A stretch of 64,000 nucleotides of DNA, taken from positions 102,159 through 166,158 of the forward strand of contig JAFSOR010000009.1 of assembly GCA_017446885.1 (NCBI GenBank), read 5' to 3'. The translations under genes and the position numbers were made by a program. The DNA comes from Spirochaetia bacterium (GTDB lineage: Bacteria > Spirochaetota > Spirochaetia > CADAEX01). How positions within the stretch are numbered: the first letter of the stretch is position 1; every line of letters begins with the position of its first letter. Shown here piece by piece: positions 31,039 through 48,337 of this stretch. The notes below the pieces were generated by a model. The model was not told where the DNA came from and made no database searches. It worked only from the letters and a program-made list of their open reading frames with translations.

Positions 31039-32128
31039 AAAAATCTGTTTTACTGGGGGAGGGACAGCAGGACATGTTTTTCCAGGCATCTCTGTCATAG
31101 AATCTCTCTGCTCCCGATATAATTACAAAAAAGAAGACTTTATTTGGATTGGCTCCAAGTCAGGAATGGAGCGGAAACTGGTCGAAGAGGCTGGAATCGA
31201 GTTTAAAGGAATACTTTCGGGAAAGCTTAGGCGCTACTTCTCCCTGCAAAATTTTGTTGATATTTTTAAAATTACACTTGGAATAGTACAGGCATTTTGC
31301 ATACTTTTTAAAGTACACCCACAAATAATCTTTTCGAAAGGGGGATATGTAAGTGTTCCTCCAGTACTGGCTGGAAAACTTTTAGGAATACCTGTAATTA
31401 CCCATGAATCAGATTATACCCCTGGTCTTGCAACTAAAATAAACGCTAATTTCTCAAGAAAAATACTCCTTTCTGTGGAAGAGACACGCAAGTACTTAAA
31501 GCCCAAATTCCATGATAAATGCGTTGTGGTCGGAAACCCTGTCCGGAGCAAGTTCTATAATGGAGATGCCCAGAAAGGGCTTGCATTCTTGGGATTCGAC
31601 ACACGTAAGCCTCTAATTTTTGTTGTAGGCGGAAGCCAGGGAAGCGGCGAGATAAACCAGCTTATATGGGAAATACGCAAACCTCTTGCCGAAAAGTACT
31701 ATATAGCTCATCAGGTGGGGGCTAATTCCACCATAGGAAAACCCGATGTGCCAGGCTATGTCCAGATTCCTTTTATAAAAGAGGAGATGGCCGACGTAAT
31801 AGCTGCATCTTCCCTGGTTGTCACCAGGGCGGGTGCCGGCTCCCTGTGGGAGCTTTCTGCCGTGGGCAGAGCTGCCCTCTTAATTCCATTAAGGGGCAGT
31901 GGCACCCGGGGCGACCAGGTAAAGAATGCACTCTATTTCAAGGAGCAGAATGCTGCCGCTGTACTTATGGAAGACACAATCAAAAGTCAGGACCTGCTGG
32001 CCGAGATAGAGAGCATCGTTGGAACAGAGAGAGGCAGGGAGCTTAGTGTCAAAATGGCCCAGATGGCCAAAAAAGACTCAGCTGACTCTATAGCGTATCA
32101 AATTGTCACACTTATTGGTAAGGATTGA
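31031..32128 (+). CDS. murG: UDP-N-acetylglucosamine--N-acetylmuramyl-(pentapeptide) pyrophosphoryl-undecaprenol N-acetylglucosamine transferase
   Basis: N-terminal G-loop GGGTAGHVFPG; 365 aa GT28 architecture. Confidence 0.9.
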   Translation: MSRKICFTGGGTAGHVFPGISVIESLCSRYNYKKEDFIWIGSKSGMERKLVEEAGIEFKGILSGKLRRYFSLQNFVDIFKITLGIVQAFCILFKVHPQIIFSKGGYVSVPPVLAGKLLGIPVITHESDYTPGLATKINANFSRKILLSVEETRKYLKPKFHDKCVVVGNPVRSKFYNGDAQKGLAFLGFDTRKPLIFVVGGSQGSGEINQLIWEIRKPLAEKYYIAHQVGANSTIGKPDVPGYVQIPFIKEEMADVIAASSLVVTRAGAGSLWELSAVGRAALLIPLRGSGTRGDQVKNALYFKEQNAAAVLMEDTIKSQDLLAEIESIVGTERGRELSVKMAQMAKKDSADSIAYQIVTLIGKD

Positions 32129-32131
32129 ACT

Positions 32132-32644
32132 ATGAACTTTGCTGACCTTTTATTTCTGCTTATTGCTTTATTTTTTGTTATCAAAGGATTTTTCAGAGGC
32201 TTTATCTCTGAATTCATGTCCATGGCTGCCCTGATTTTAGGTCTTTTGGCCGCAATGCTCTTAAGAGCACAGGTCTCTGGGTTTCTCAAGGATATGATTA
32301 AAAACGATACTTTGCGTCTAATAGTTGCATTCTTCCTTGTCTTTATAGGCACATACATCCTGGTCAAGCTTTTGGAGATGCTGCTCCATAATGCTATAGA
32401 GGCAATAAAGATGAACAGCCTGGATCGGCTTCTGGGGCTTGTGTGGGGGCTTTTGGAGACTTCGGTCATAGTCCTGATTGCCGTTTACTTTATCTATTCC
32501 TTGAAATTCAAGGCCGGCATCTCGTTCCTCGAGGACAGCGTAGTTGCCAAGTATGCCAGGGATTTCCTTGAGGGGCTGAATATCGGAGACTTTAACCTTG
32601 ATAAGGTGAAGGATCTGCCAGGAGTGATTAAGAAAAATGTTTGA
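32132..32644 (+). CDS. cvpA: CvpA-family membrane protein
   Basis: 170 aa, 4 TM; conserved position downstream of murG. Confidence 0.65.
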   Translation: MNFADLLFLLIALFFVIKGFFRGFISEFMSMAALILGLLAAMLLRAQVSGFLKDMIKNDTLRLIVAFFLVFIGTYILVKLLEMLLHNAIEAIKMNSLDRLLGLVWGLLETSVIVLIAVYFIYSLKFKAGISFLEDSVVAKYARDFLEGLNIGDFNLDKVKDLPGVIKKNV

Positions 32645-33815
32645 GAACATAATAGGGCATAGACAGACTGTAGAGCTACTTAAAGAGCAGGTTTCCCATA
32701 ACCAGCTGCCCGGCTCCATACTTATAGAGGGCCCCCGGTATGCAGGAAAGCTTACTCTGGCCCTTGAGCTGGCCCGTGCTCTGACCTGCACCGGGGACAG
32801 AAGCTGGAACTGCCGCTGCCCCAGCTGCCGCAGCCAGAAGCTCCTTGTCCATCCCGATACCCTGATTCTTGGATACGACAATTTTATGGAAGAGATATCG
32901 GTAGCTCACCAGCTTCTGTCTAATAACGACCAGATATATACCCGATACCTTTTCATTCGTAGCGTGCGAAAGCTCTTACGGCGGTTTGACCCTGTATTCT
33001 ACGACGAGAAAGAGACCAAGTTTAAAAAGGTACAGCCACTCCTTTCATTCTTGGAAGAGGCCCTTGGCAGCATAAATCCAGATGATCTTTCTGCCTCTTT
33101 GAAACCCAAGCTTCTGGACAGCATTGCAGATAATGCGGCAGACCTGGCCAAAGAGCTTAACCTTTCAACCATACCTGTAAACCAGATACGTAAGGTTACA
33201 TTCTGGGCTCATACAAGTACAACAGAAAACCGCAAGGTGGTAATTATCGAGAATGCCGAGAAGATGAACGACAGTGCCCGTAACAGCATGCTCAAGATTT
33301 TAGAGGAACCCCCGGCCAATTGTTTCTTCATATTCCTCTCTTCCCGTACTGGCGAGATTATACCTACAATCCGCTCCAGGCTCCGCAGTTATCCTTTAAA
33401 GGAGCGCACCGCCGAGGAAGATGGCAAGGTGCTCAGCCTTATATTCCGTGAGAACAGCGGCCTATTCAGCTCTATCTCAAGCTATTTCGACAGCTTTGAC
33501 CCCGATGTGGAAAAGCTTTCAGAGCTTGCAGGGCAGTTCCTTTCTTACTATCTGGCCGATTCTAAATCAGATGAGCTAAAAAACCAGCTTATTCTGGCTT
33601 TAAGGGATATAAAAGGGGAGTCGGTAAAAGTCTTTCTGGAAAAACTGCTGGAACATGCTCGCGCAGCTCTTACAGGGGCTGTATTCGGCACAACGCATAA
33701 ATTAGAAATGCTTTCAAGACGCCTTGACCAGATATGGTTCGACTTTGAAAGCCTAAACATGAATCCTCAGCTTCTGTTTGAATATCTTCTGTATGATAAA
33801 GGGGGGAATATATGA
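32637..33815 (+). CDS. holB: DNA polymerase III delta-prime subunit
   Basis: AAA+ clamp-loader motifs (GPRYAGK, Zn-module CTGDRSWNCRCPSC, SRC-like SRL). Confidence 0.75.
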   Translation: MFENIIGHRQTVELLKEQVSHNQLPGSILIEGPRYAGKLTLALELARALTCTGDRSWNCRCPSCRSQKLLVHPDTLILGYDNFMEEISVAHQLLSNNDQIYTRYLFIRSVRKLLRRFDPVFYDEKETKFKKVQPLLSFLEEALGSINPDDLSASLKPKLLDSIADNAADLAKELNLSTIPVNQIRKVTFWAHTSTTENRKVVIIENAEKMNDSARNSMLKILEEPPANCFFIFLSSRTGEIIPTIRSRLRSYPLKERTAEEDGKVLSLIFRENSGLFSSISSYFDSFDPDVEKLSELAGQFLSYYLADSKSDELKNQLILALRDIKGESVKVFLEKLLEHARAALTGAVFGTTHKLEMLSRRLDQIWFDFESLNMNPQLLFEYLLYDKGGNI

Positions 33816-35005
33816 GAAATTTTGTGACAGCAGCACTCAGAAAGACCCGTAACCTGGCTCCCGAGGAAAAAGTTGCAATCTACGAAGAGCTCCTTAAGAA
33901 CATAGCACTTGATGATGACATGATGATAATGGTGCTGGATGCCCTTTCCACCGGCGTGGCAGTGGCAGACCAGGAACATAAGGTTTTTTTCATGAACCGC
34001 TATCTTGCAAACCTTGTGCGCTCTAAAAAGCCCGAGCAGTCTGTCCTGGTGTGGGATATCTTTGCACATCAGGATATATCTGATTTCATACGGAGCACTG
34101 TTTTAGCAGGGAAAAAACGGACATCAAGCATATTCGATTACAGCATAGAAGATAAGCATTTTTTCATCGAGGTTACTGTCTCTATGCTCCAGCATCCCGA
34201 CGGCAGGACTGGCCATATAATAAACATTGCCAATGTTACAGAACGGGAGAGGGAAAAAAGCGACAAGAAAAGAAAAGAGAGCTTTGCCTCCCTTACAGCC
34301 CTTACTGCAGGTGTTGCCCACGAGCTTAAGAACCCGCTGGGCAGCATGAGCATATATCTTCAGCTTATGGAGAGACAGCTTCAGAAACCGTCTGCCTTTG
34401 AAGATATCCAGGCCTGCCGCGACAGCCTTATATCCAAGATTAAGGTGCTTGAGGGAGAGGTTGAGCGGCTTAACAGCATTGTGGTGGACTTCCTTTCCAC
34501 AGTGCGCCCGCGTAATGCAAATCTTATGGAAGAAGACCTTAACCAGATAATAAAGGATTCTGTCGAGATAATGATTCCAGACCTTGAGCAGCATAATATT
34601 GTCCTTAAGATGGATCTTGAGGAGAACCTGCCGTACCTTATGCTGGACCGGGGCTTTATCCGTCAGGTGCTTACAAACCTGGTTGCCAATGCAAAGGATG
34701 CCATGAAAGAGCTTGGCAGCGGTACACTGACTATCTCCACCAAGAAAAACAGCGACTTTGTCATACTGAGCGTGGCAGACACAGGAACCGGAATTCCGCA
34801 GGAAAACCTTACCAAGATTTTCGACCCGTACTTTACAACCAAGAAGAGCGGCACAGGAATAGGCCTTACCCTGGTCTACAAGATAATACGCGGGATGGGC
34901 GGTGACATAAGCGTAAATTCTAAGCAGGGTGCAGGAACCACCTTCAGTATTACATTGCCGCGCATGGAAAAAGAGATTAAACAGATTGAATGGGAGACAA
35001 AATGA
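33812..35005 (+). CDS. sensor histidine kinase (PAS-like + HisKA + HATPase_c)
   Basis: H-box AHELKNPL; N/G1/G2 boxes (NLVANAKDA, DTGTGI, GTGIGL). Confidence 0.8.
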   Translation: MRNFVTAALRKTRNLAPEEKVAIYEELLKNIALDDDMMIMVLDALSTGVAVADQEHKVFFMNRYLANLVRSKKPEQSVLVWDIFAHQDISDFIRSTVLAGKKRTSSIFDYSIEDKHFFIEVTVSMLQHPDGRTGHIINIANVTEREREKSDKKRKESFASLTALTAGVAHELKNPLGSMSIYLQLMERQLQKPSAFEDIQACRDSLISKIKVLEGEVERLNSIVVDFLSTVRPRNANLMEEDLNQIIKDSVEIMIPDLEQHNIVLKMDLEENLPYLMLDRGFIRQVLTNLVANAKDAMKELGSGTLTISTKKNSDFVILSVADTGTGIPQENLTKIFDPYFTTKKSGTGIGLTLVYKIIRGMGGDISVNSKQGAGTTFSITLPRMEKEIKQIEWETK

Positions 35006-36351
35006 AGTTCAATATCCTGGTTGCAGACGATGAAGCCAATATCCGCCGTGGTCTTGCCATGGGGCTTACAGACGAAGGCTATAATGTATATGAGGCTGGA
35101 GACGGTCTTGAGGCGCTTAAGATAATAGGGGCCAAAGATGTGGATCTGGTCATAACCGACCTTAAAATGCCCGAGATGACAGGCGAGGAGCTTCTGAAGC
35201 ACATAACCGCAAACTATAAGAATATCCCTGTCATTATCCTTACAGGACACGGAACTATAGAGACTGCCGTGCAGATGATGCATGACGGAGCCTACGACTT
35301 TATGACCAAACCCCTAAATCTGGACCACCTTTTCCTGATTATAAAACGGGCTCTTTCCAACAGGCAGCTTGTTCTTGAGCACGATGCCCTGCAGGCTCAA
35401 CTTGATAAGATGAAGGCCTCAAGCCGGATGATTGTGGGAAAAAGCCCCAAGATGCGCCAGATTATGGAGACCGTTGAGCAGGTGGCTGGAACCCGGGCAT
35501 CAATCCTGCTTACAGGCGAGAGCGGTGTCGGAAAAGAGGTTATAGCCGATGCTATACAGGCTCTTTCGGACCGGCGTGACAAACCTTTTATAAAGGTGCA
35601 CTGTGCTGCCCTTGCAGAAGGGGTTCTTGAAAGCGAGCTGTTCGGCCACGAGAAAGGATCGTTCACCGGTGCCATTGCCCGAAAGAAAGGAAAGTTCGAG
35701 CTTGCCGACAAAGGAACTATCTTTTTGGACGAGATTGGCGAGATAAACCAGAGCATTCAGGTCAAGCTGCTACGCATAATACAGGAACGCGAGTTTGAGC
35801 GGGTAGGTGGCGAGGAGACTGTAAAGGTCGATGTCAGGATAATATCTGCCACAAACAAGAACCTGCAGCAGGAGGTCCAGAAAGGCAACTTCCGCGAAGA
35901 CCTGTTCTACCGCCTTAATGTAGTCAATATAGAGATACCGCCGCTAAGAGAACGCAAGGAGGATATTCTCCTTATGGCCACCGCATTCTTAAACCGGTTT
36001 GCAAAGGAGAATGGCAAAGAGATATCCGGCATGGACTCTAAGGTCATGGCAATTCTTTATAACCATCCGTGGCGTGGCAATATAAGGGAGCTTGAGAACT
36101 GCATGGAGAACGCTGTCATAATGTGCAAGGGCAATATTATTTCGGTAGACGACCTGCCATTTGCAATGCGTAAAGAAGCTGGCGACAACTTTGTTAAGAT
36201 AAAGCTTGGCACCACGCTGGACAATGCAGAAAAAACCCTTATTATGGCTACACTTGATATGTGCAAGGGGAATAAGAGCAAGGCGGCCGAGGTGCTGGCT
36301 ATAGGAAGAAAGACACTGCACCGCAAGCTGGACGAATATGCAGAGAATTGA
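34990..36351 (+). CDS. sigma-54-dependent response regulator (NtrC family)
   Basis: REC domain; AAA+ sigma54-activation domain GESGVGKE and GAFTGA-like motif; C-terminal Fis-type HTH. Confidence 0.9.
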   Translation: MGDKMKFNILVADDEANIRRGLAMGLTDEGYNVYEAGDGLEALKIIGAKDVDLVITDLKMPEMTGEELLKHITANYKNIPVIILTGHGTIETAVQMMHDGAYDFMTKPLNLDHLFLIIKRALSNRQLVLEHDALQAQLDKMKASSRMIVGKSPKMRQIMETVEQVAGTRASILLTGESGVGKEVIADAIQALSDRRDKPFIKVHCAALAEGVLESELFGHEKGSFTGAIARKKGKFELADKGTIFLDEIGEINQSIQVKLLRIIQEREFERVGGEETVKVDVRIISATNKNLQQEVQKGNFREDLFYRLNVVNIEIPPLRERKEDILLMATAFLNRFAKENGKEISGMDSKVMAILYNHPWRGNIRELENCMENAVIMCKGNIISVDDLPFAMRKEAGDNFVKIKLGTTLDNAEKTLIMATLDMCKGNKSKAAEVLAIGRKTLHRKLDEYAEN

Positions 36352-38761
36352 AGACTACTTTACCCCCGAGATGATACGTTTCCTCCGCACCTCCATAGAG
36401 GAGGCCGAAGGGAATGAGGTCCTTTTCTCAGGCAAGGCCAACAAGGATGGCATTGTAGATGAGATTATCCTGGCTGCCCGGGGCAAGGAGGACACTGTCC
36501 CTGTCATAGAATCGGTGATAGATTTTGGCGATGTCCTTATACACAACCATCCAAACGGCTATCTTAAGCCCAGCGAGGCAGACCTGGATGTGGCAGGGCG
36601 TCTGGGGCGGCACGGAATAGGGGCATACATAATAGACAACCAGGCCACCAGGCTATATGTGGTGGCAGAGATAATAAGGAGCAACAAGACACAGCCCCTG
36701 GATATAGACAAGACAGCATCGTACCTGGAAGATGGCGGTGCTTTATCACAGAGTGTGGAAAACTATGAATCAAGACCCCAGCAGATAGACTTCCTAAAGG
36801 CTGTGTGCAGCTCTTTCAACAAAGACAACATAACAATAGCCGAGGCTGGAACCGGTGTGGGCAAATCCTTTGCATATCTTATCCCGGCATTCAAATGGGC
36901 CGAAAAAAACAAAGAACGAGTAATCATATCAACCGGCACCATAAACCTGCAGCACCAGCTATTAGAGAAAGATATTCCTGTCATTCAAAAATTGCTGGGA
37001 AGCAAACTTAAAGCTGTCCTTGTAAAAGGAAGGCAGAACTATATATGTCTTAGGCGGTTCAACGACAGAGCACAGGAGGCAAGCCTCTTTGACACTGAGG
37101 ATGATTTCAAGGCGATTGAGAAGTGGCTTACTGTGACCAAGACCGGCGAGCGTAGCGATCTTTCATTCTTTCCAAGCTGGGAGCTGTGGAGCGACATTTG
37201 CTCCGAAAGCGAAAGCTGCCTGGGTATAAAGTGTCCGTACAGGGAAAAGTGTTTTGTAATCCGAAGCCGCAAAGAGGCCACCGGAGCCAGCATAATAGTG
37301 GTGAACCATCATCTTCTGTTCTCTGATATGGAGGCAAGGATGGAGGATGACTTCAACGGAACCAGCATTCTGCCTAATTATTCAAGGGTAATTTTTGATG
37401 AGGCCCATAACCTTGAGAACGCGGCCACATCCTACTTCTCGCAGAGCGTTAACAAGGGCTATATACTCAAGATAATGCACCAGATATACCGCAGGATAAA
37501 GGACCGGGTTTTAGGACTCTACCGATTCTGGAGCTACTATACCGAGCAGAAGGATAAACTTGAGAGCATTCCTCAGCAGATAGCTGTAATACTGTCCAGA
37601 ACCGATGACCTTGAGAAAGTGGTTCAGGCCAATGTGCTTATGAACGACAACTCATCTGTCCTTGATATGAGGAGTGATGCCATAAATGCTTCCGATATCT
37701 ACGCTGCTGTAGCCAATGTACGTAACGAGATAAATGACCTTTTCAACACAGTCACCGATATCCAGGAGGAGCTTTCCAAGATTCCCGATAAAGAGGTCAA
37801 GAACGACAAGCGTATGTACGAGTCCTCCATAGTCAAGAACAAGCTCAGCGGCATAATAAGCATGCTCAATGACTTTATTGCAAACCAGGACACCTGCATC
37901 AACTATATAGAGAAAGGAAAAAAGTATTCATCCCTGTTCATAGCACCCCTTTCGGTATCCGAGACACTGCGCGAGATTATATTCAACAAGCTGTCTAACG
38001 TGGTGCTGGTATCTGCCACACTGAGCGTGAACAAGAGCTTCGAGTTCTATGCCACACGGATAGGGCTGCATGATGTTGAGCGGCCTGTTGCTAGGTTTAT
38101 CTTTGACTCTCCGTTTGAGTATAAGAAGAACGTGCTGCTTTCCATTCCATCGGATCTGCCAGAACCCAAGAGCGCCGATTACAGCCATAAGCTTTCTGAC
38201 CTTATAAAGAATGTTCTTATAATCTCGGAAGGCAAGGGGCTTGTGCTGTTTACATCCTATTCTATGCTCAAGACAGTCTACGACCTGGTGCGGGACGATT
38301 TTTCGCAGGCAGGAATAACACTTTTCAAACAAGGGGACGATGACAACAAGAAGCTTTTGGGAAACTTCTTTATAAATAAAAACAGCGTCCTGTTCGCCAC
38401 CGACTCATTCTGGGAAGGGGTGGATGTGCCTGGCGAATCCCTTTCTGTCCTTATAATCTGCCGGCTTCCTTTCAAGGTACCGTCTGACCCCGTAATAAAG
38501 GCCAGGATGGAGCTTATAGAGAAAAACGGGGGCAACTCATTTATGGAGTATTCGCTTCCAGAGGCTGTAATAAAGCTGCGTCAAGGGTTCGGCAGGCTTA
38601 TACGCCGTAAAAGCGACAGGGGGGTGATTCTTATCACCGACACCCGGATATTGACTAAATTTTATGGTAAGATTTTCTTCAATTCTCTCCCGGAAACCAG
38701 GAGAGATATTACATCATCAGATAGGATTTGTCTTAAGATAGAGGATTTCCTCTATCCATAA
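36338..38761 (+). CDS. DinG/XPD-family Fe-S DNA helicase with N-terminal RadC-like JAB/JAMM domain
   Basis: JAMM motif HNHPNGYLKPSEADL (HxHx7Sx2D) in the first ~110 aa; then Walker A AGTGVGKS, DEAHNL box, and an Fe-S module with four Cys (CLRRF...CSESESCLGIKCPYREKC). Confidence 0.8.
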   Translation: MQRIEDYFTPEMIRFLRTSIEEAEGNEVLFSGKANKDGIVDEIILAARGKEDTVPVIESVIDFGDVLIHNHPNGYLKPSEADLDVAGRLGRHGIGAYIIDNQATRLYVVAEIIRSNKTQPLDIDKTASYLEDGGALSQSVENYESRPQQIDFLKAVCSSFNKDNITIAEAGTGVGKSFAYLIPAFKWAEKNKERVIISTGTINLQHQLLEKDIPVIQKLLGSKLKAVLVKGRQNYICLRRFNDRAQEASLFDTEDDFKAIEKWLTVTKTGERSDLSFFPSWELWSDICSESESCLGIKCPYREKCFVIRSRKEATGASIIVVNHHLLFSDMEARMEDDFNGTSILPNYSRVIFDEAHNLENAATSYFSQSVNKGYILKIMHQIYRRIKDRVLGLYRFWSYYTEQKDKLESIPQQIAVILSRTDDLEKVVQANVLMNDNSSVLDMRSDAINASDIYAAVANVRNEINDLFNTVTDIQEELSKIPDKEVKNDKRMYESSIVKNKLSGIISMLNDFIANQDTCINYIEKGKKYSSLFIAPLSVSETLREIIFNKLSNVVLVSATLSVNKSFEFYATRIGLHDVERPVARFIFDSPFEYKKNVLLSIPSDLPEPKSADYSHKLSDLIKNVLIISEGKGLVLFTSYSMLKTVYDLVRDDFSQAGITLFKQGDDDNKKLLGNFFINKNSVLFATDSFWEGVDVPGESLSVLIICRLPFKVPSDPVIKARMELIEKNGGNSFMEYSLPEAVIKLRQGFGRLIRRKSDRGVILITDTRILTKFYGKIFFNSLPETRRDITSSDRICLKIEDFLYP

Positions 38762-38765
38762 ATAA

Positions 38766-39911
38766 TCAACTTTTGCTGCAGATAAAATCGCGGTATTTGT
38801 CTGGATCTGTTTTCAAGGCAACTATGTTCTCGTCGTCTGTGCACTTGAAAAGGGCAGCCTTGGTCTCGGTCATAAGGCGCTCCGAATCCATTTCGCGGCC
38901 ATTTCTGGAGGAAAGACCTGCATAAAGCATGTTCTTGCCAGACATAACGCTGAACGATTTTACAAAGTTCTGGCAAATGGCAAGTCCTTCCTGCAGATTT
39001 TTTTCAGGGAATATGACTGTGAACTTGTCTTCGGATAATGCAAAGCGCAGGTCGTTAAGTGTAAAGCATTCGCCAGCAACCTCGCCTGCAAGTTTCCACA
39101 GGTCTGCACCAGGGGTAGATGTAAACTTGAACTCTGCAAGAACCAGGTCTTTTTTTAGAGAGATTGACTCGGCAAGGCAATCGGTGAGTGCTATGTCAAA
39201 AAATTTAATGTCTGCAAACCCGAAGTCTGTAGGCTTATGCTCAATCCTCATCTCGGCCTGTGGAACTGGTTCTGATTCTGGCTCGTACAATGTTGCCTCA
39301 GGGCTCATCTCCTTTAATTCAGGTGCAGCATCCCCAGTTTCGGCAGCAGAAACCTTTGCTGCTTTTGGGAGGAACTTTAATCCCTTGCTTGATGATACAG
39401 CCAGGGCCAGAGCAGTAATTATTATGAACACCAGTGTGTATACCATAAGGGATTTGAATACATATACAGCCTGTGACCTGTCAGAAATCTTATAAAGAAT
39501 CTCTATATTAAGGACTGGTGGTGTGGCAGTGACCTTTACAGGCCCTTTGTAGAGCATAAAGTTGCGGCTTGTAGTGTACTTTGCCTCGTTCTTGTCGGGG
39601 TAGAACTGCACTGAGTCAGGATTGGAGGAATAATAGTAGAGGACAGCGTTGTCGCTGTTCTTGATTACCAGGGACTGAAGCCTTCTGTCGTAGTTGAACA
39701 GTGCCTTCACATTCTTGCTGAATGCAGGAAAAAACCTGTCTCCAGCCAGATATCCGTTTCGGATTACCTTGCTCATCTGGGCAAACATGTCATCGCCACG
39801 CTGGGCATTTGCCTTCTGGATTCCATAAATTCTGATTGTGAACAATGTGGTGATAAGCAAAAAAATAGCCAGTGCTGAAACAGCATATACGACAATAATA
39901 TTCTTTTTCAT
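38766..39911 (-). CDS. membrane protein with a degenerate GGDEF-like C-terminal domain
   Basis: N-terminal TM, periplasmic segment, second TM, then a weak GGDEF-like pattern (YAGLSSRNG in place of GGDEF); low-confidence assignment. Confidence 0.35.
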   Translation of the reverse strand: MKKNIIVVYAVSALAIFLLITTLFTIRIYGIQKANAQRGDDMFAQMSKVIRNGYLAGDRFFPAFSKNVKALFNYDRRLQSLVIKNSDNAVLYYYSSNPDSVQFYPDKNEAKYTTSRNFMLYKGPVKVTATPPVLNIEILYKISDRSQAVYVFKSLMVYTLVFIIITALALAVSSSKGLKFLPKAAKVSAAETGDAAPELKEMSPEATLYEPESEPVPQAEMRIEHKPTDFGFADIKFFDIALTDCLAESISLKKDLVLAEFKFTSTPGADLWKLAGEVAGECFTLNDLRFALSEDKFTVIFPEKNLQEGLAICQNFVKSFSVMSGKNMLYAGLSSRNGREMDSERLMTETKAALFKCTDDENIVALKTDPDKYRDFICSKS

Positions 39912-39927
39912 AATATTATTATCGGTA

Positions 39928-40764
39928 TTATAAAATAATCTTTGAGATAATTCTGATTATAAAATCAGCAAACAGGTGACGTTTGGCATTGGCTGTAACC
40001 AGAACCTCGTTCTCGTCAAGCTTGGTTTCAGATACACCTGCCGCAAGGTTGGATATAACAGATATAGCCAGAACCTTTAATCCTGCATGTACTGCTATTA
40101 TAGTCTCGGGCACAGTGGACATCCCCACGGCATCGGCTCCTAAAATCCTGGCCATGCGTATTTCGGCAGGTGTCTCGTAACTGGGGCCCATGAACCATAT
40201 GTAGACACCTTCCTTAAGGTCTATATCAAGCTCCTGCGCAGCCTTGCGGGCATTCTGCTGCAGTACCGGGTCGTAGCATTCAGACATGTCTGGAAACCTG
40301 GGGCCGAAGTCGGAATTGTTCTTGCCTATTAGAGGGTTTGTCCCCGAGTTGTTTATATGGTCGGTTATAAGCATAAAGTCGCCAGGCCTGAAATCTTTGT
40401 TTATTCCACCTGCCGCATTGGTCTGTATAAGGTATGTCACTCCCAGCACCTTAAGGCTACGCAGCACAATAGCAATATCCTGACCGTTGTAGCCTTCGTA
40501 GAAATGGAAGCGGCCGTCCAGCAGTATTACATCTTTTTTATCAAGTTTTCCAAATATCAGACGCCCTATGTGGCCCGGAGCAGTGGAGACTGGAAAGTAG
40601 GGTATATCTTTGTATGGAATCTCAACATCTATCTTTACCTGGCTGGTAAGAGGCCCCAGTCCTGAGCCCAGTATGATTGCAATCTTAGGCTGGCCGCGAT
40701 ACTTGCTCTCAAACAAAACCTTGTTTATGTGGTTGGTAGCCTTTATGATTGTATCATCTCTCAT
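39928..40764 (-). CDS. purine nucleoside phosphorylase (PNP/MTAP family)
   Basis: 278 aa; phosphate-binding GSGLG near the N-terminus; family-typical VGMSTVPE motif. Confidence 0.8.
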   Translation of the reverse strand: MRDDTIIKATNHINKVLFESKYRGQPKIAIILGSGLGPLTSQVKIDVEIPYKDIPYFPVSTAPGHIGRLIFGKLDKKDVILLDGRFHFYEGYNGQDIAIVLRSLKVLGVTYLIQTNAAGGINKDFRPGDFMLITDHINNSGTNPLIGKNNSDFGPRFPDMSECYDPVLQQNARKAAQELDIDLKEGVYIWFMGPSYETPAEIRMARILGADAVGMSTVPETIIAVHAGLKVLAISVISNLAAGVSETKLDENEVLVTANAKRHLFADFIIRIISKIIL

Positions 40765-46822: not shown

Positions 46823-46895
46823 GGTGGCGTAACTCAGTCGGTAGAGTAAGCGGCTCATATCCGCTCTGTCAGGGGTTCGAGTCCCTTCGCCACTA
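46823..46895 (+). tRNA. tRNA-Met (anticodon CAU; elongator Met or Ile-lysidine type, cannot distinguish)
   Basis: manual cloverleaf fold: acceptor GGTGGCG/CGCCACT, D-stem ACTC/GAGT, anticodon stem AGCGG/CCGCT with loop CTCATAT, T-loop TTCGAGT; 73 nt, no encoded CCA. Confidence 0.85.
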
Positions 46896-46900
46896 AAAAA

Positions 46901-48337
46901 ATGAAAAGATATTATTTCATTTTTCTTTTTTTTGTCCTTGCAATTGCTGGCTGCGGAGGCAGTGGCGGAAGCAGCAGTGATGACAACGGCGGAGGCGGAT
47001 GAGGCGATGGTGATACGGCTGGCCTCTGCTTTACTTCTTCTGGATCAACTGTTGTCTCAATCAGAATAAATGGAACTCTTGATAATATTCCGACCCTTGA
47101 CTATTCAAAAGATGGTTCAACTTGGACTCCAATTGTTCTGAAAAATGACGATACAGTTAAAGTTTCTGATCTTTCAGATGGTGAAAAGGTATATTTAAGG
47201 GCACATAATACTAATAACTCTTTCTCTGAAAGTGTTTCTAAATTCATACAATTCGTATTCACTGGTACAGGTTCTATCTCAGCCAGTGGTAATATAATGA
47301 GTCTTCTTGATAAGACACTCAGTTCAACTAAAATACCTTGTGACAGATGTTTTTGCAGGCTTTTTGAGAATTGTACAGCATTAACCAGAGCCCCAATTTT
47401 GCCAGCAGTAACATTGACAAGTGGCTGCTATCAAAATATGTTCGATGGATGCACTAACCTTAAGACAGCTCCGATCCTTCCTGCATTGACAATGAAGAAT
47501 CAATGTTATTGTAGAATGTTTGAAGGCTGTACAAGCCTAGTGACAGCCCCGGCTCTTCCTGCAACAACATTAGCAGATACGTGCTATACAGAAATGTTCT
47601 CTGGATGCACAAGCCTTGTAACACCTCCAGTTCTACCCGCAGAAACTTTGGCAAGTGAATGTTATTCGGGGATGTTCGCTGGCTGTACAAGCCTTGCGAC
47701 AGCTCCATCTCTTCCTGCGACAGCATTGGCAGATAGTTGTTATTCAGAAATGTTCTCTGGATGCACAAGCCTTGCGACAGCTCTATCTCTTCCTGCGACA
47801 GCATTGGCAGATAGTTGTTATTCAGAAATGTTCTCTGGATGCACAAGCCTTACGACAGCTCCGGCTCTGCCCGCAGAAACTTTGGCAAGTGAATGTTATC
47901 ATTCTATGTTCACTGGCTGTACAAGCCTAGTGACAGCCCCGGCTCTTCCTGCAACAACATTAGCAGATACGTGCTATTATGGTATGTTCAGTGTTTGTAT
48001 AAACCTTTTAAATGCCCCAACTCTTCCTGCAACAGTATTAAAAACTAATTGTTATCATTCTATGTTCTATAACTGTACAAGCCTTGTGACAGCTCCTGAT
48101 CTTCCAGCAATAACGTTGGTAGATGGTTGTTATTCATTAATGTTTAACAGCTGTACAAACTTAAATTATATTAAAGTTTCTTTTACCAGTTGGGGTCCAC
48201 AGACTAATGGCTGGGTCTATAATGTAAAAAAGGATGGAACATTCGTTTGTCCTGAGTCGTTAGCAATGGAGCCAGGAAGTAGCGGAGATAGAGGTGTAAA
48301 CAAGGTCCCAATAAGTTTTTTCGTCGAAAACCCCTGA
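46901..48337 (+). pseudogene. BspA/LrrA-type leucine-rich-repeat surface lipoprotein gene interrupted by a single in-frame TGA at 47000..47002
   Basis: lipoprotein signal MKRYYFIFLFFVLAIAGC plus Gly/Ser linker in the same frame as downstream ORF 47297..48337; about eleven 26-aa repeats LPxxTLxxxCYxxMFxGCTSLxTAPx. Confidence 0.55.
47390..48170 (+). repeat. tandem 78-bp (26-codon) Cys-containing LRR units with several near-identical copies
   Basis: units at 47711..47788 and 47789..47866 are about 90 percent identical; a 43-nt string (agccccggctcttcctgcaacaacattagcagatacgtgctat) occurs at both ~47539 and ~47935. Confidence 0.75.

Follow-up and report, generated by a model that had tools for sequence, protein, structure and literature searches.

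The 64-kb window (the whole stretch of DNA analysed, 64,000 nucleotides) contains one unbroken 807-aa open reading frame at positions 36338-38761 of the forward strand in the ORF listing, which begins at the earliest possible start codon. The frame is intact between an N-terminal JAB part and a helicase part, and a frameshift or stop that would split the ORF into separate radC-like and dinG genes, which the initial annotation had named as a refutation, is not present here. The gene and its upstream neighbours are as follows.

32637-33815, + strand: DNA polymerase III delta'-like gene (Pfam), upstream of the helicase gene
33812-35005, + strand: histidine kinase gene (Pfam), overlapping the delta'-like gene
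34990-36351, + strand: sigma-54 response regulator gene (Pfam), overlapping the kinase gene and directly upstream of the helicase gene
36338..38761, + strand: whole gene for a RadC-like JAB - DinG/XPD Fe-S helicase (ORF, domain searches, >100 full-length homologues, colinearity with published members)

The initial annotation had placed the gene immediately downstream of a sigma-54 two-component system, and the start of the JAB-DinG gene indeed overlaps the stop of the response regulator gene by 14 nt. No convincing internal promoter or terminator was found in the upstream cluster (32637..36351), and in this lineage these co-oriented, overlapping genes are probably cotranscribed with the helicase gene. 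Synteny of this cluster was also seen at loci L001, L002, L081-83, and L085; the adjacency to the two-component system is local, lineage-specific synteny of one gut/rumen clade and not a conserved functional link. Neighbouring genes are housekeeping in kind (delta', PNP, MnmA, BirA, GroEL), and no defence genes or CRISPR were found near the JAB-DinG gene, which follows spirochaete synteny, indicating vertical inheritance. The N-domain of the window protein is 97% identical to that of MAG RUG13243 (uncultured rumen/gut Spirochaetaceae lineage).

Within the gene, the following features were located.

36338..36673, + strand: JAB/MPN+ domain, residues 1 to ~112, a minimal domain
36416..36418, + strand: codon of the JAMM general base, Glu27 (within the motif GNEV), which does not vary across alignments A1 and A2 or the 75 homologues
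36542..36583, + strand: JAMM zinc motif HNHPNGYLKPSEAD, residues 69-82 (H69, H71, S79, D82), which aligns with the motif of RadC 2qlc
36674..36742, + strand: short linker, residues 113-135, with a conserved helix and a PGGxLS-type motif (G134 invariant)
36848..36868, + strand: Walker A GTGVGKS, residues 171-177, in helicase domain 1, invariant in 75 homologues
37046..37252, + strand: Fe-S module with Cys237, Cys294, Cys299, and Cys305 plus the non-universal Cys288, from conservation
37397..37408, + strand: DEAH box (Walker B), residues 354-357, invariant in 75 homologues
37478..38017, + strand: Arch-type helical insertion, residues ~381-560, boundaries approximate, from the model, the conservation profile, and the DinG/XPD fold match
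38207..38695, + strand: helicase domain 2, Helicase_C_2 at residues 624-786 (Pfam 3.8e-48), with the invariant motif VI QGFGRLIR at 749-756

The N-terminal part has a JAB (deaminase-like) fold, with helices at residues 10-22 and 80-90 and strands at 28-34, 40-48, 65-70, 95-99, and 105-110. Its active site follows the pattern E ... HxHx7Sx2D (E27, H69-N-H71, S79, D82), in agreement with the intact JAMM signature that had been proposed for the first ~110 residues. Among 75 aligned full-length homologues E27, H69, H71, and D82 are conserved at 100% and S79 at 99%, and the spaced motif is present in 147 of 148 representative clusters (50% identity), the remaining one keeping the residues around an insertion. 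In the six-frame translation of the window there is a single strict match to the JAMM pattern. Pfam RadC scores 19.9 bits against the whole protein and 22.9 bits against the N-domain alone (cut-off 22.1), with only the 26 residues around the motif aligning, and is matched by 23/23 aligned N-domains, which bears out the reading of a DinG/XPD helicase with a RadC-type JAB/JAMM domain at its N-terminus. Among active enzymes, those closest in structure are without exception (iso)peptidases. Across 186 members the JAB domain is acidic throughout (median pI 4.74, net charge -8). The E/HxH/S/D site is complete, and the N-terminus is predicted to carry a dedicated, catalytically intact minimal zinc-hydrolase domain.

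The remainder of the protein was described by the initial annotation as a complete DinG-type helicase, and the domain searches bear this out, with Pfam matches to Helicase_C_2 (3.8e-48), DEAD, and DEAD_2. Walker A, DEAH, and motif VI of an XPD/DinG superfamily 2 helicase, spread over two RecA-like domains, are accompanied by a four-Cys module inserted in helicase domain 1 and by a fold that includes the Arch insertion. C237, C294, C299, and C305 are conserved at 100% and C288 at 75% in the 75 aligned full-length homologues; cluster binding is predicted, and the Cys spacing fits the '4C' class in Table S1 of the 2025 review (PMC11981726). For the full-length AF2 model (pLDDT 88, pTM 0.82), S. 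aureus DinG and E. coli DinG-ssDNA 6FWR (E 1.4e-41, TM 0.73 normalised by target) are the best Foldseek matches, and the solved structures matched include 9II8, XPD 4A15, and CasDinG. In this model the Arch-type insertion forms long helices at residues 405-435, 451-480, and 491-514, and it is the least conserved part of the protein. The XPD/DinG-type helicase motor is complete, with ATP-dependent 5'-3' unwinding as its predicted activity. A PADLOC match to typeIV_DinG reflects generic DinG similarity.

Iyer, Zhang, Rogozin and Aravind (NAR 2011, PMC3239186) described DinG fused to a RadC-type JAB domain in spirochaetes as well as in other phyla, and a 2025 review (Comput Struct Biotechnol J, PMC11981726) uses the name "RadC-like DinG" for the subgroup, with spirochaete proteins among the members it lists. 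Members named include Spirochaeta thermophila E0RQL2, Brachyspira hyodysenteriae A0A3B6VGN9, Desulfuromonas soudanensis A0A0M4DKS9, and Kuenenia stuttgartiensis A0A2C9CFG9. The window protein is colinear with E0RQL2 (47% identity, E 4e-128) and A0A0M4DKS9 (41% identity, E 1e-109), both of which Table S1 of PMC11981726 assigns to RadC-like DinG; both alignments start inside the JAB domain and cover ~390-400 residues, which is the reference part given in that table. The JAB domain lies N-terminal to DinG in one polypeptide and homology is colinear across both domains, without substantive difference from the subgroup; only the local gene order differs, with the sigma-54 regulator directly upstream here and PNP there. 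By identity and architecture, not chemistry, the gene is very probably a member of this subgroup and would encode a replication/repair helicase, chromosomal and inherited vertically, with an N-terminal JAB domain; among XPD-family 5'-3' Fe-S helicases it falls in the YoaA/DinG branch. With the fusion in print since 2011 and taken up again in 2025, the window contributes one more member and no new kind of system. The view in the initial annotation that DinG proteins either lack an N-terminal extension or have a DnaQ domain there is therefore out of date, and the novelty it implied for the RadC-JAB fusion does not hold. On RadC-like DinG, the review states that 'no research has been conducted' (PMC11981726).

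The survey of orthologues that had been suggested recovered the fusion in >100 full-length homologues and in at least 520 species genomes. The best 80 species loci are mostly from Spirochaetota, together with Geothermobacter, Acidobacteriota, Nitrospirota, and KSB1; all assessable loci among them encode JAB and helicase within one ORF, and the single ORF is kept in 78/80, the exceptions (L047, L078) being multiply frameshifted MAG assemblies. A profile of the N-domain retrieves ~750 clusters (50% identity). In each of the best 150 the domain either precedes a helicase or comes from a truncated fragment; none of these 150 shows this JAB subfamily standing alone, and the subfamily appears dedicated to such fusions. 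Between the window protein and L001, pN/pS is 0.024 for the JAB domain and 0.054 for the helicase, whereas the linker (0.124) exceeds both flanking domains. Purifying selection is strong on both parts, and JAB is constrained at least as much as the helicase.

Several known systems resemble parts of this protein. E. coli YoaA is a DinG-family helicase that partners the clamp-loader subunit chi/HolC and functions in azidothymidine tolerance (PMC4636137, PMC9826845). Of the NCBIfam models, that of YoaA scores highest on the helicase part (601.9 bits, residues 129-790), and YoaA shares the 4-Cys Fe-S layout, but the window protein stays below the equivalog cut-off of NF053712 (680 bits) and YoaA itself has no N-terminal JAB domain. 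Firmicute ExoDinG proteins, i.e., B. subtilis and S. aureus DinG, carry an N-terminal DnaQ-type 3'-5' exonuclease (PDB 9II8/8ZEF; PMC12345164). Their helicase core and that of the window protein are related (PRK08074 523.7 bits; E 3e-35 in Foldseek) and an accessory hydrolase occupies the same N-terminal junction, but theirs is an RNase H-like DEDD exonuclease, unrelated to the deaminase-like JAB in fold and chemistry. Identity with ExoDinG was rejected (PRK08074 523.7 vs 789, PRK07246 189.4 vs 794, TIGR01407 402.7 vs 547.7), the profiles aligning only from ~230 onward: position 232 of PRK08074 aligns to residue 117 and position 230 of TIGR01407 to residue 129.

For canonical RadC/YicR (PF04002; PDB 2QLC) the curated cut-offs give a mixed picture: the Pfam RadC score lies just above its cut-off for the N-domain alone and below it for the whole protein, and the NCBIfam RadC models (TIGR00608 / PRK00024) fall far below theirs (18.8 vs 180, 13.6 vs 133.85). 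HMM similarity is limited to the ~26-residue motif. Canonical RadC has a helix-hairpin-helix DNA-binding domain N-terminal to JAB (Iyer et al., 2011, PMC3239186), whereas Pfam, NCBIfam, and the model reveal no N-terminal helix-hairpin-helix in the window protein, in which JAB starts at residue ~1. The ~750 clusters of the N-domain profile do not include the large RadC family. Compared with the JAMM/MPN+ isopeptidases Rpn11, CSN5, AfJAMM, and PfJAMM1 (14-20% identity), the window domain is minimal (~110 aa), and no ubiquitin-like partner was recognised near its gene. A functional analogy may be drawn with FANCJ, a eukaryotic family member that unfolds DNA-protein crosslinks, probably before the metalloprotease SPRTN degrades them, according to the account of Yaneva et al. 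(2023) in PMC10175854. Both cases would pair an XPD-family 5'-3' Fe-S helicase with a zinc metalloprotease cooperating on DNA, but FANCJ and SPRTN are separate proteins, and the protease SPRTN is of the zincin type rather than a JAB domain.

In our working model, the helicase would load onto ssDNA where a gap or a stalled fork exposes it and translocate 5'-3', which would carry the hydrolase on a ~20-residue tether to blocks or to material exposed by unwinding; the Zn-hydrolase would sit where Firmicute DinG bears its 3'-5' exonuclease. For the chemistry of JAB, we tentatively prefer Zn-dependent hydrolysis of amide or peptide bonds in protein or peptide attached or bound to DNA (crosslink or road-block clearance). 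This preference rests on the full peptidase constellation, including Ser, on the (iso)peptidase nature of all nearest active structural neighbours, and on the consistent acidity of the domain, the acidic surface being weak evidence against DNA chemistry. To our knowledge no JAB domain acts as a general protease, which counts against the peptidase model. Characterised JAB domains cut after specific ubiquitin-like tails, and the neighbour families common to at least 17/80 loci include no recognisable gene for a ubiquitin-like protein, E1, or E2. The sister type S. aureus ExoDinG is needed for mitomycin C and formaldehyde resistance (PMC12345164), and this role, with the FANCJ/SPRTN analogy, also favours peptidase-type chemistry. 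The narrower proposal, a DNA-context zinc peptidase/amidase that the helicase delivers to adducts, protein or peptide, on the strand along which it translocates, is quite doubtful.

The main competitor, which we rank below amide- or peptide-bond hydrolysis and consider unlikely, is that JAB is a nuclease or DNA-end-processing enzyme in place of the DnaQ-type exonuclease, the non-homologous displacement proposed by Iyer et al. (2011, PMC3239186). Exonuclease-DinG profiles align from exactly where JAB ends, JAB-bearing and exonuclease-bearing helicases are closely related, and other fusions join RadC-type JAB to HhH, primase, and ArdC modules, each of them a DNA context (PMC3239186); endonuclease domains also occupy the same place in other DinG subgroups (PMC11981726; PMC13650095). 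The displacement argument (Iyer et al., PMC3239186) favours the nuclease and speaks against the peptidase model. Other or regulatory roles make up the remainder. Among these, a mainly non-catalytic protein- or DNA-binding module, which might replace the missing chi/HolC of YoaA or regulate or recruit the helicase, is improbable. The YoaA-like helicase core, the absence of HolC from organisms with RadC-like DinG (PMC11981726), the loss of JAB in a sister lineage with an otherwise unchanged locus, the loss of Zn ligands in some fusobacterial copies (Iyer et al., PMC3239186), and the frequency of scaffolds among eukaryotic MPN domains in the structural match list would all suit it. A pure scaffold, however, would not keep five catalytic residues so nearly invariant across clusters and full-length homologues, nor does the low pN/pS of JAB favour it.

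It is very improbable that JAB is a Cap3/BilC-type isopeptidase belonging to a bacterial system of ubiquitin-like conjugation or defence, with a defence or CRISPR-associated DinG as its helicase. The Csf4 model of type IV CRISPR CasDinG (TIGR03117) reaches 127.4 bits against a cut-off of 400, the window holds no CRISPR array, cas gene, or CRISPR-related Rfam match, and no Ubl/E1/E2 or CD-NTase family was recognised in the neighbour families common to at least 17/80 loci; the housekeeping neighbours and the synteny indicating vertical inheritance likewise argue against it. That radC-like and dinG genes were joined by a sequencing or annotation error is a general concern for MAG-derived sequence, and two related MAG assemblies hold broken copies, but the comparative data refute it: the same single ORF recurs in independent assemblies from >500 species and several phyla, N-termini and linker are conserved, and the best 150 of ~750 clusters lack a stand-alone form, leaving this explanation a negligible probability.

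What RadC-type JAB domains do has been an open question for decades, and a paper bears the title "RadC, a misleading name?". The DinG fusion is the clearest hint that such domains act on DNA-linked substrates, a hint published in 2011 and repeated in 2025. To this, the present analysis makes modest additions, namely the apparently dedicated JAB subfamily (among the best 150 of ~750 clusters), the strong constraint on JAB, its uniform acidity, and its clean loss in a sister lineage. If the peptidase/amidase reading is true, RadC-like DinG would be a one-polypeptide bacterial counterpart of the FANCJ-plus-SPRTN crosslink-repair pair, and a RadC-type JAB domain would for the first time have a biochemical function assigned to it.

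The loss of JAB with identical gene order is one small new point. In a close gut-spirochaete sister lineage the domain has been cleanly deleted, and this helicase, together with the fusobacterial copies that lack Zn ligands, indicates that JAB is not essential to the helicase. The deletion provides a natural domain-deletion control, which could guide comparative or genetic tests.

The gene at 36338..38761 (+) is a single ORF of 807 aa in the ORF list and opens at the first start codon past the preceding stop. Its translation contains the following features:

Residue 27 (+): upstream Glu27 of the JAMM site, in motif GNEV
Residues 69-82 (+): JAMM motif HNHPNGYLKPSEAD
Residues 171-177 (+): Walker A, GTGVGKS
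Residues 237, 288, 294, 299 and 305 (+): cysteines
Residues 354-357 (+): DEAH
Residues 749-756 (+): motif VI, QGFGRLIR

Translated in all six frames, the whole window contains a single match to the strict JAMM pattern. Pfam searches placed DEAD_2 and Helicase_C_2 (3.8e-48), together with DEAD and ResIII, on the helicase part, and RadC on the N-terminal part, where the match is confined to residues 66-91 and scores 19.9 bits in the whole protein and 22.9 bits in the N-domain alone (cut-off 22.1). Among NCBIfam models, the helicase part is nearest to YoaA (601.9 bits, residues 129-790), followed by the Bacillus-type exonuclease-DinG PRK08074 (523.7 bits, profile 232-925 on residues 117-801) and E. 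coli DinG (396 bits); none of these scores reaches the respective equivalog cut-off. The first 14 nt of the gene are shared with the end of the upstream sigma-54 response-regulator gene. The initial annotation, which had described one ORF carrying the JAMM motif, Walker A, DEAH and Fe-S cysteines with a start overlapping an NtrC-type regulator gene, is accurate, and its interpretation as a RadC-type JAB domain joined to a DinG helicase is correct.

The full-length model of the protein (pLDDT 88, pTM 0.82) best matches the fold of E. coli DinG with ssDNA (6FWR, E 1.4e-41), followed by S. aureus DinG (9II8/8ZEF, approximately 3e-35 to 3e-34) and then by XPD and CasDinG. As modelled, the helicase part bears all the hallmarks of an XPD/DinG-family 5'-3' Fe-S helicase. 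The N-domain, residues 1 to approximately 112, was compared separately with known structures.

Structural matches of the N-domain (match: score, percentage)
Rpn11: 9.3, 14%
Pyrococcus JAMM1: 9.2, 15%
CSN5: 9.1, 14%
Caldiarchaeum Rpn11: 8.6, 15%
AfJAMM: 8.3, 20%
RadC homologue 2QLC: 8.1, 24% (highest percentage)

Cap3, BilC and then deaminases are remoter matches. The N-domain profile aligns with 2QLC (E 6.7e-6) over the zinc motif only, which together with the structural matches indicates that the N-domain is a JAB/MPN+ domain of minimal size that carries the RadC-type HNHPxG...PSxxD signature and forms a subfamily of its own. Different from canonical RadC, it does not contain a helix-hairpin-helix domain. 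It is acidic (pI 4.76, net charge -8), as is its family in general (median pI 4.74 across 186 members).

JAB-fused helicases have been described as closely related to those fused to a 3'-5' exonuclease (Iyer et al., 2011; PMC3239186). The window protein is a member of this published RadC-like DinG subgroup, sharing 47% identity with E0RQL2 (E 4e-128) and 41% with a D. soudanensis protein (E 1e-109). The two alignments run colinearly from within the JAB domain over the first approximately 390-400 residues, the reference portion present in Table S1 of a 2025 review (PMC11981726). No experimental study of this subgroup, or of RadC as either a protease or a nuclease, turned up in our literature searches. 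Beyond the literature, the window makes the role of RadC-type JAB domains more testable in one respect, by pointing to a sister lineage in which the JAB domain is naturally absent.

Comparative data rule out a gene-fusion artefact. Searching 5.8 billion proteins gave over 100 full-length relatives (798-838 aa, 44-94% identity, approximately 100% coverage). Most come from Spirochaetia MAGs, and HNHPxGxLxPSxxD stands at about residue 68 in nearly all of them. Residues E27, H69, N70, H71, P72 and D82 are invariant in alignments of 23 N-domains and of 55 and 75 full-length proteins, and S79 and R48 are present in at least 90% of sequences in each of the three (approximately 99% in the 75-sequence set); C237/C294/C299/C305, Walker A, DEAH and motif VI are likewise invariant in the 75-sequence set. 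When one genome per species was scanned, at least 520 genomes proved to encode a relative of the N-domain; the best 80 of these belong mainly to Spirochaetota, with Geothermobacter, Acidobacteriota, Nitrospirota, KSB1 and others. Wherever the contig permits, the JAB domain and helicase share one ORF in these 80 loci. The sole exceptions are L047 (5998-8875) and L078 (6001-8528), from MAGs MFD04408 and MFD00991, in which frameshifts break the gene into three to four ORFs; these are more likely to be assembly errors than pseudogenes. When the window gene is compared with L001, the closest relative (rumen MAG RUG13243; 97% identity in the N-domain), 51 synonymous and 4 non-synonymous differences fall in the JAB part, giving a pN/pS of 0.024, against 0.054 for the helicase part.

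The N-domain profile retrieved 750 clusters at E <=1e-3 from 1.84 billion cluster representatives. Among the best 150 of these, the domain is N-terminal in a protein of approximately 800-920 aa or lies in a truncated fragment of such a protein, and no stand-alone form of the subfamily was seen. Short matches considered as stand-alone relatives proved to be truncated fragments or frameshift products still containing the helicase start.

Two protein clusters, P0048 from a close sister lineage and the related P0055, both of 676 aa, lack the JAB domain and align with the helicase part at 60% and 57% identity, respectively, the P0048 match spanning residues 141-807. The P0048 genes are located as follows:

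L081, 5001-7031: JAB-less DinG gene (GCA_045606105.1, JAZURI010000002.1)
L082, 4333-6363: JAB-less DinG gene
L083, 2757-4787: JAB-less DinG gene

These three independent contigs repeat the gene order of the window (CvpA, delta', kinase, regulator, helicase, hypothetical, phosphorylase, MnmA, BirA and GroEL), and the helicase start likewise overlaps the regulator stop. No JAB remnant was found within 5 kb of the P0048 helicase gene. In a neighbour-joining tree of the helicase core, the JAB-less proteins are nested within the JAB-bearing ones, beside the window group and the homologue P0046. The loss of the JAB domain in this lineage is therefore secondary and clean. A further apparent JAB-less form, P0047 (656 aa), was rejected: in one horse-faeces MAG, a contig break divides this gene, JAB domain included, between L002 (JAKSTW010000047.1) and L084 (JAKSTW010000051.1). 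P0046 itself (L085, 3170-5599; 56% identical) keeps the JAB domain, with the motif Ser changed to Glu (HNHPSGDLLPEGAD) and diverged flanking residues, which may reflect relaxed constraint in the gut clade.

In the window protein, a short linker of residues ~113-135 connects a complete predicted zinc-hydrolase site on a JAB fold with helicase domain 1 of a complete Fe-S helicase, and the profile alignment places the JAB domain at the junction where Firmicute DinG bears a DnaQ-type exonuclease. The helicase would move 5'-3' along ssDNA, either at gaps or at stalled forks, and would present a substrate to the tethered hydrolase. To our knowledge, all characterised JAB enzymes are (iso)peptidases. 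For this reason, and because the Ser of the peptidase site is retained, the domain is acidic and two helicases offer parallels, we tentatively favour, as a possible chemistry, the hydrolysis of amide or peptide bonds in a protein or peptide that is attached to DNA or bound on it. S. aureus needs the sister enzyme ExoDinG to resist mitomycin C and formaldehyde (PMC12345164), and FANCJ, of the same helicase family, unfolds DNA-protein crosslinks, likely ahead of their degradation by the metalloprotease SPRTN (PMC10175854). A nuclease, the idea of Iyer et al., is a serious rival, if in itself rather unlikely. A mainly non-catalytic role is improbable, because the site is invariant.

The upstream neighbours are housekeeping genes:

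32637-33815 (+): DNA polymerase III delta'-like gene
33812-35005 (+): histidine kinase
34990-36351 (+): sigma-54 response regulator, adjoining the helicase gene

Each of the three overlaps the next, and the helicase gene follows, which bears out its annotated position directly downstream of a two-component sigma-54 system. However, it is only within the gut/rumen clade of the window (L001, L002, L081-83 and L085) that the regulator and helicase genes stay adjacent, whereas in approximately 29 other spirochaete loci the phosphorylase gene lies immediately upstream of the helicase gene, often overlapping it, and the delta'-kinase-regulator block sits 1.3-3.6 kb away, further upstream. A functional link to the two-component system was therefore dropped. 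In the neighbour families present in at least 17 of the 80 loci, nothing but spirochaete synteny genes was recognised, and the window's own neighbours were not found beside the gene in the non-spirochaete loci among these 80. A promoter and terminator scan of 32000-40200 gave counts at or below shuffle expectation, that is, at chance level. A role as a defence or CRISPR helicase was also rejected: the PADLOC typeIV_DinG match (439 bits) reflects generic DinG similarity, the protein's score with the Csf4 equivalog model is far below that model's cut-off, and the window contains no CRISPR array or cas gene.

Many Spirochaetia (e.g., L003, L004, L008, L024, L034, L039, L064 and L081) keep the run of overlapping delta', kinase and regulator genes (32637-36351, +) together. 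It is unusual for the gene of a clamp-loader subunit to be paired with a two-component system.

Downstream of the helicase gene are a convergent gene without a Pfam match, a purine nucleoside phosphorylase, MnmA and a BirA-like ligase. The convergent ORF (38766-39911, -; 381 aa), whose stop codon is 4 nt from that of the helicase gene, has a hydrophobic N-terminal segment and no PADLOC match either; L001, the nearest relative, is the sole locus in which a homologue turned up, and L081 and L084 have hypothetical genes of 353 and 365 aa at the corresponding position. For mnmA, the listed TTG start (40749) lies within the 5' end of the divergent phosphorylase gene (39928-40764), so that the two share 16 nt (40749-40764), and the real start is probably a downstream Met (MNKILALGMSGG...). 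The only Rfam match in the 64-kb window at the gathering threshold is a tRNA gene (46823-46895, +). The ORF at 47297-48337 (+) contains a 78-bp tandem repeat at 47525-48144 (approximately eight copies, 71% matches) encoding 26-aa repeats, and Pfam assigns it a BspA-type leucine-rich repeat region (LRR_5, 3.2e-09), which points to a surface protein of the type usual in bacteria that live with a host.
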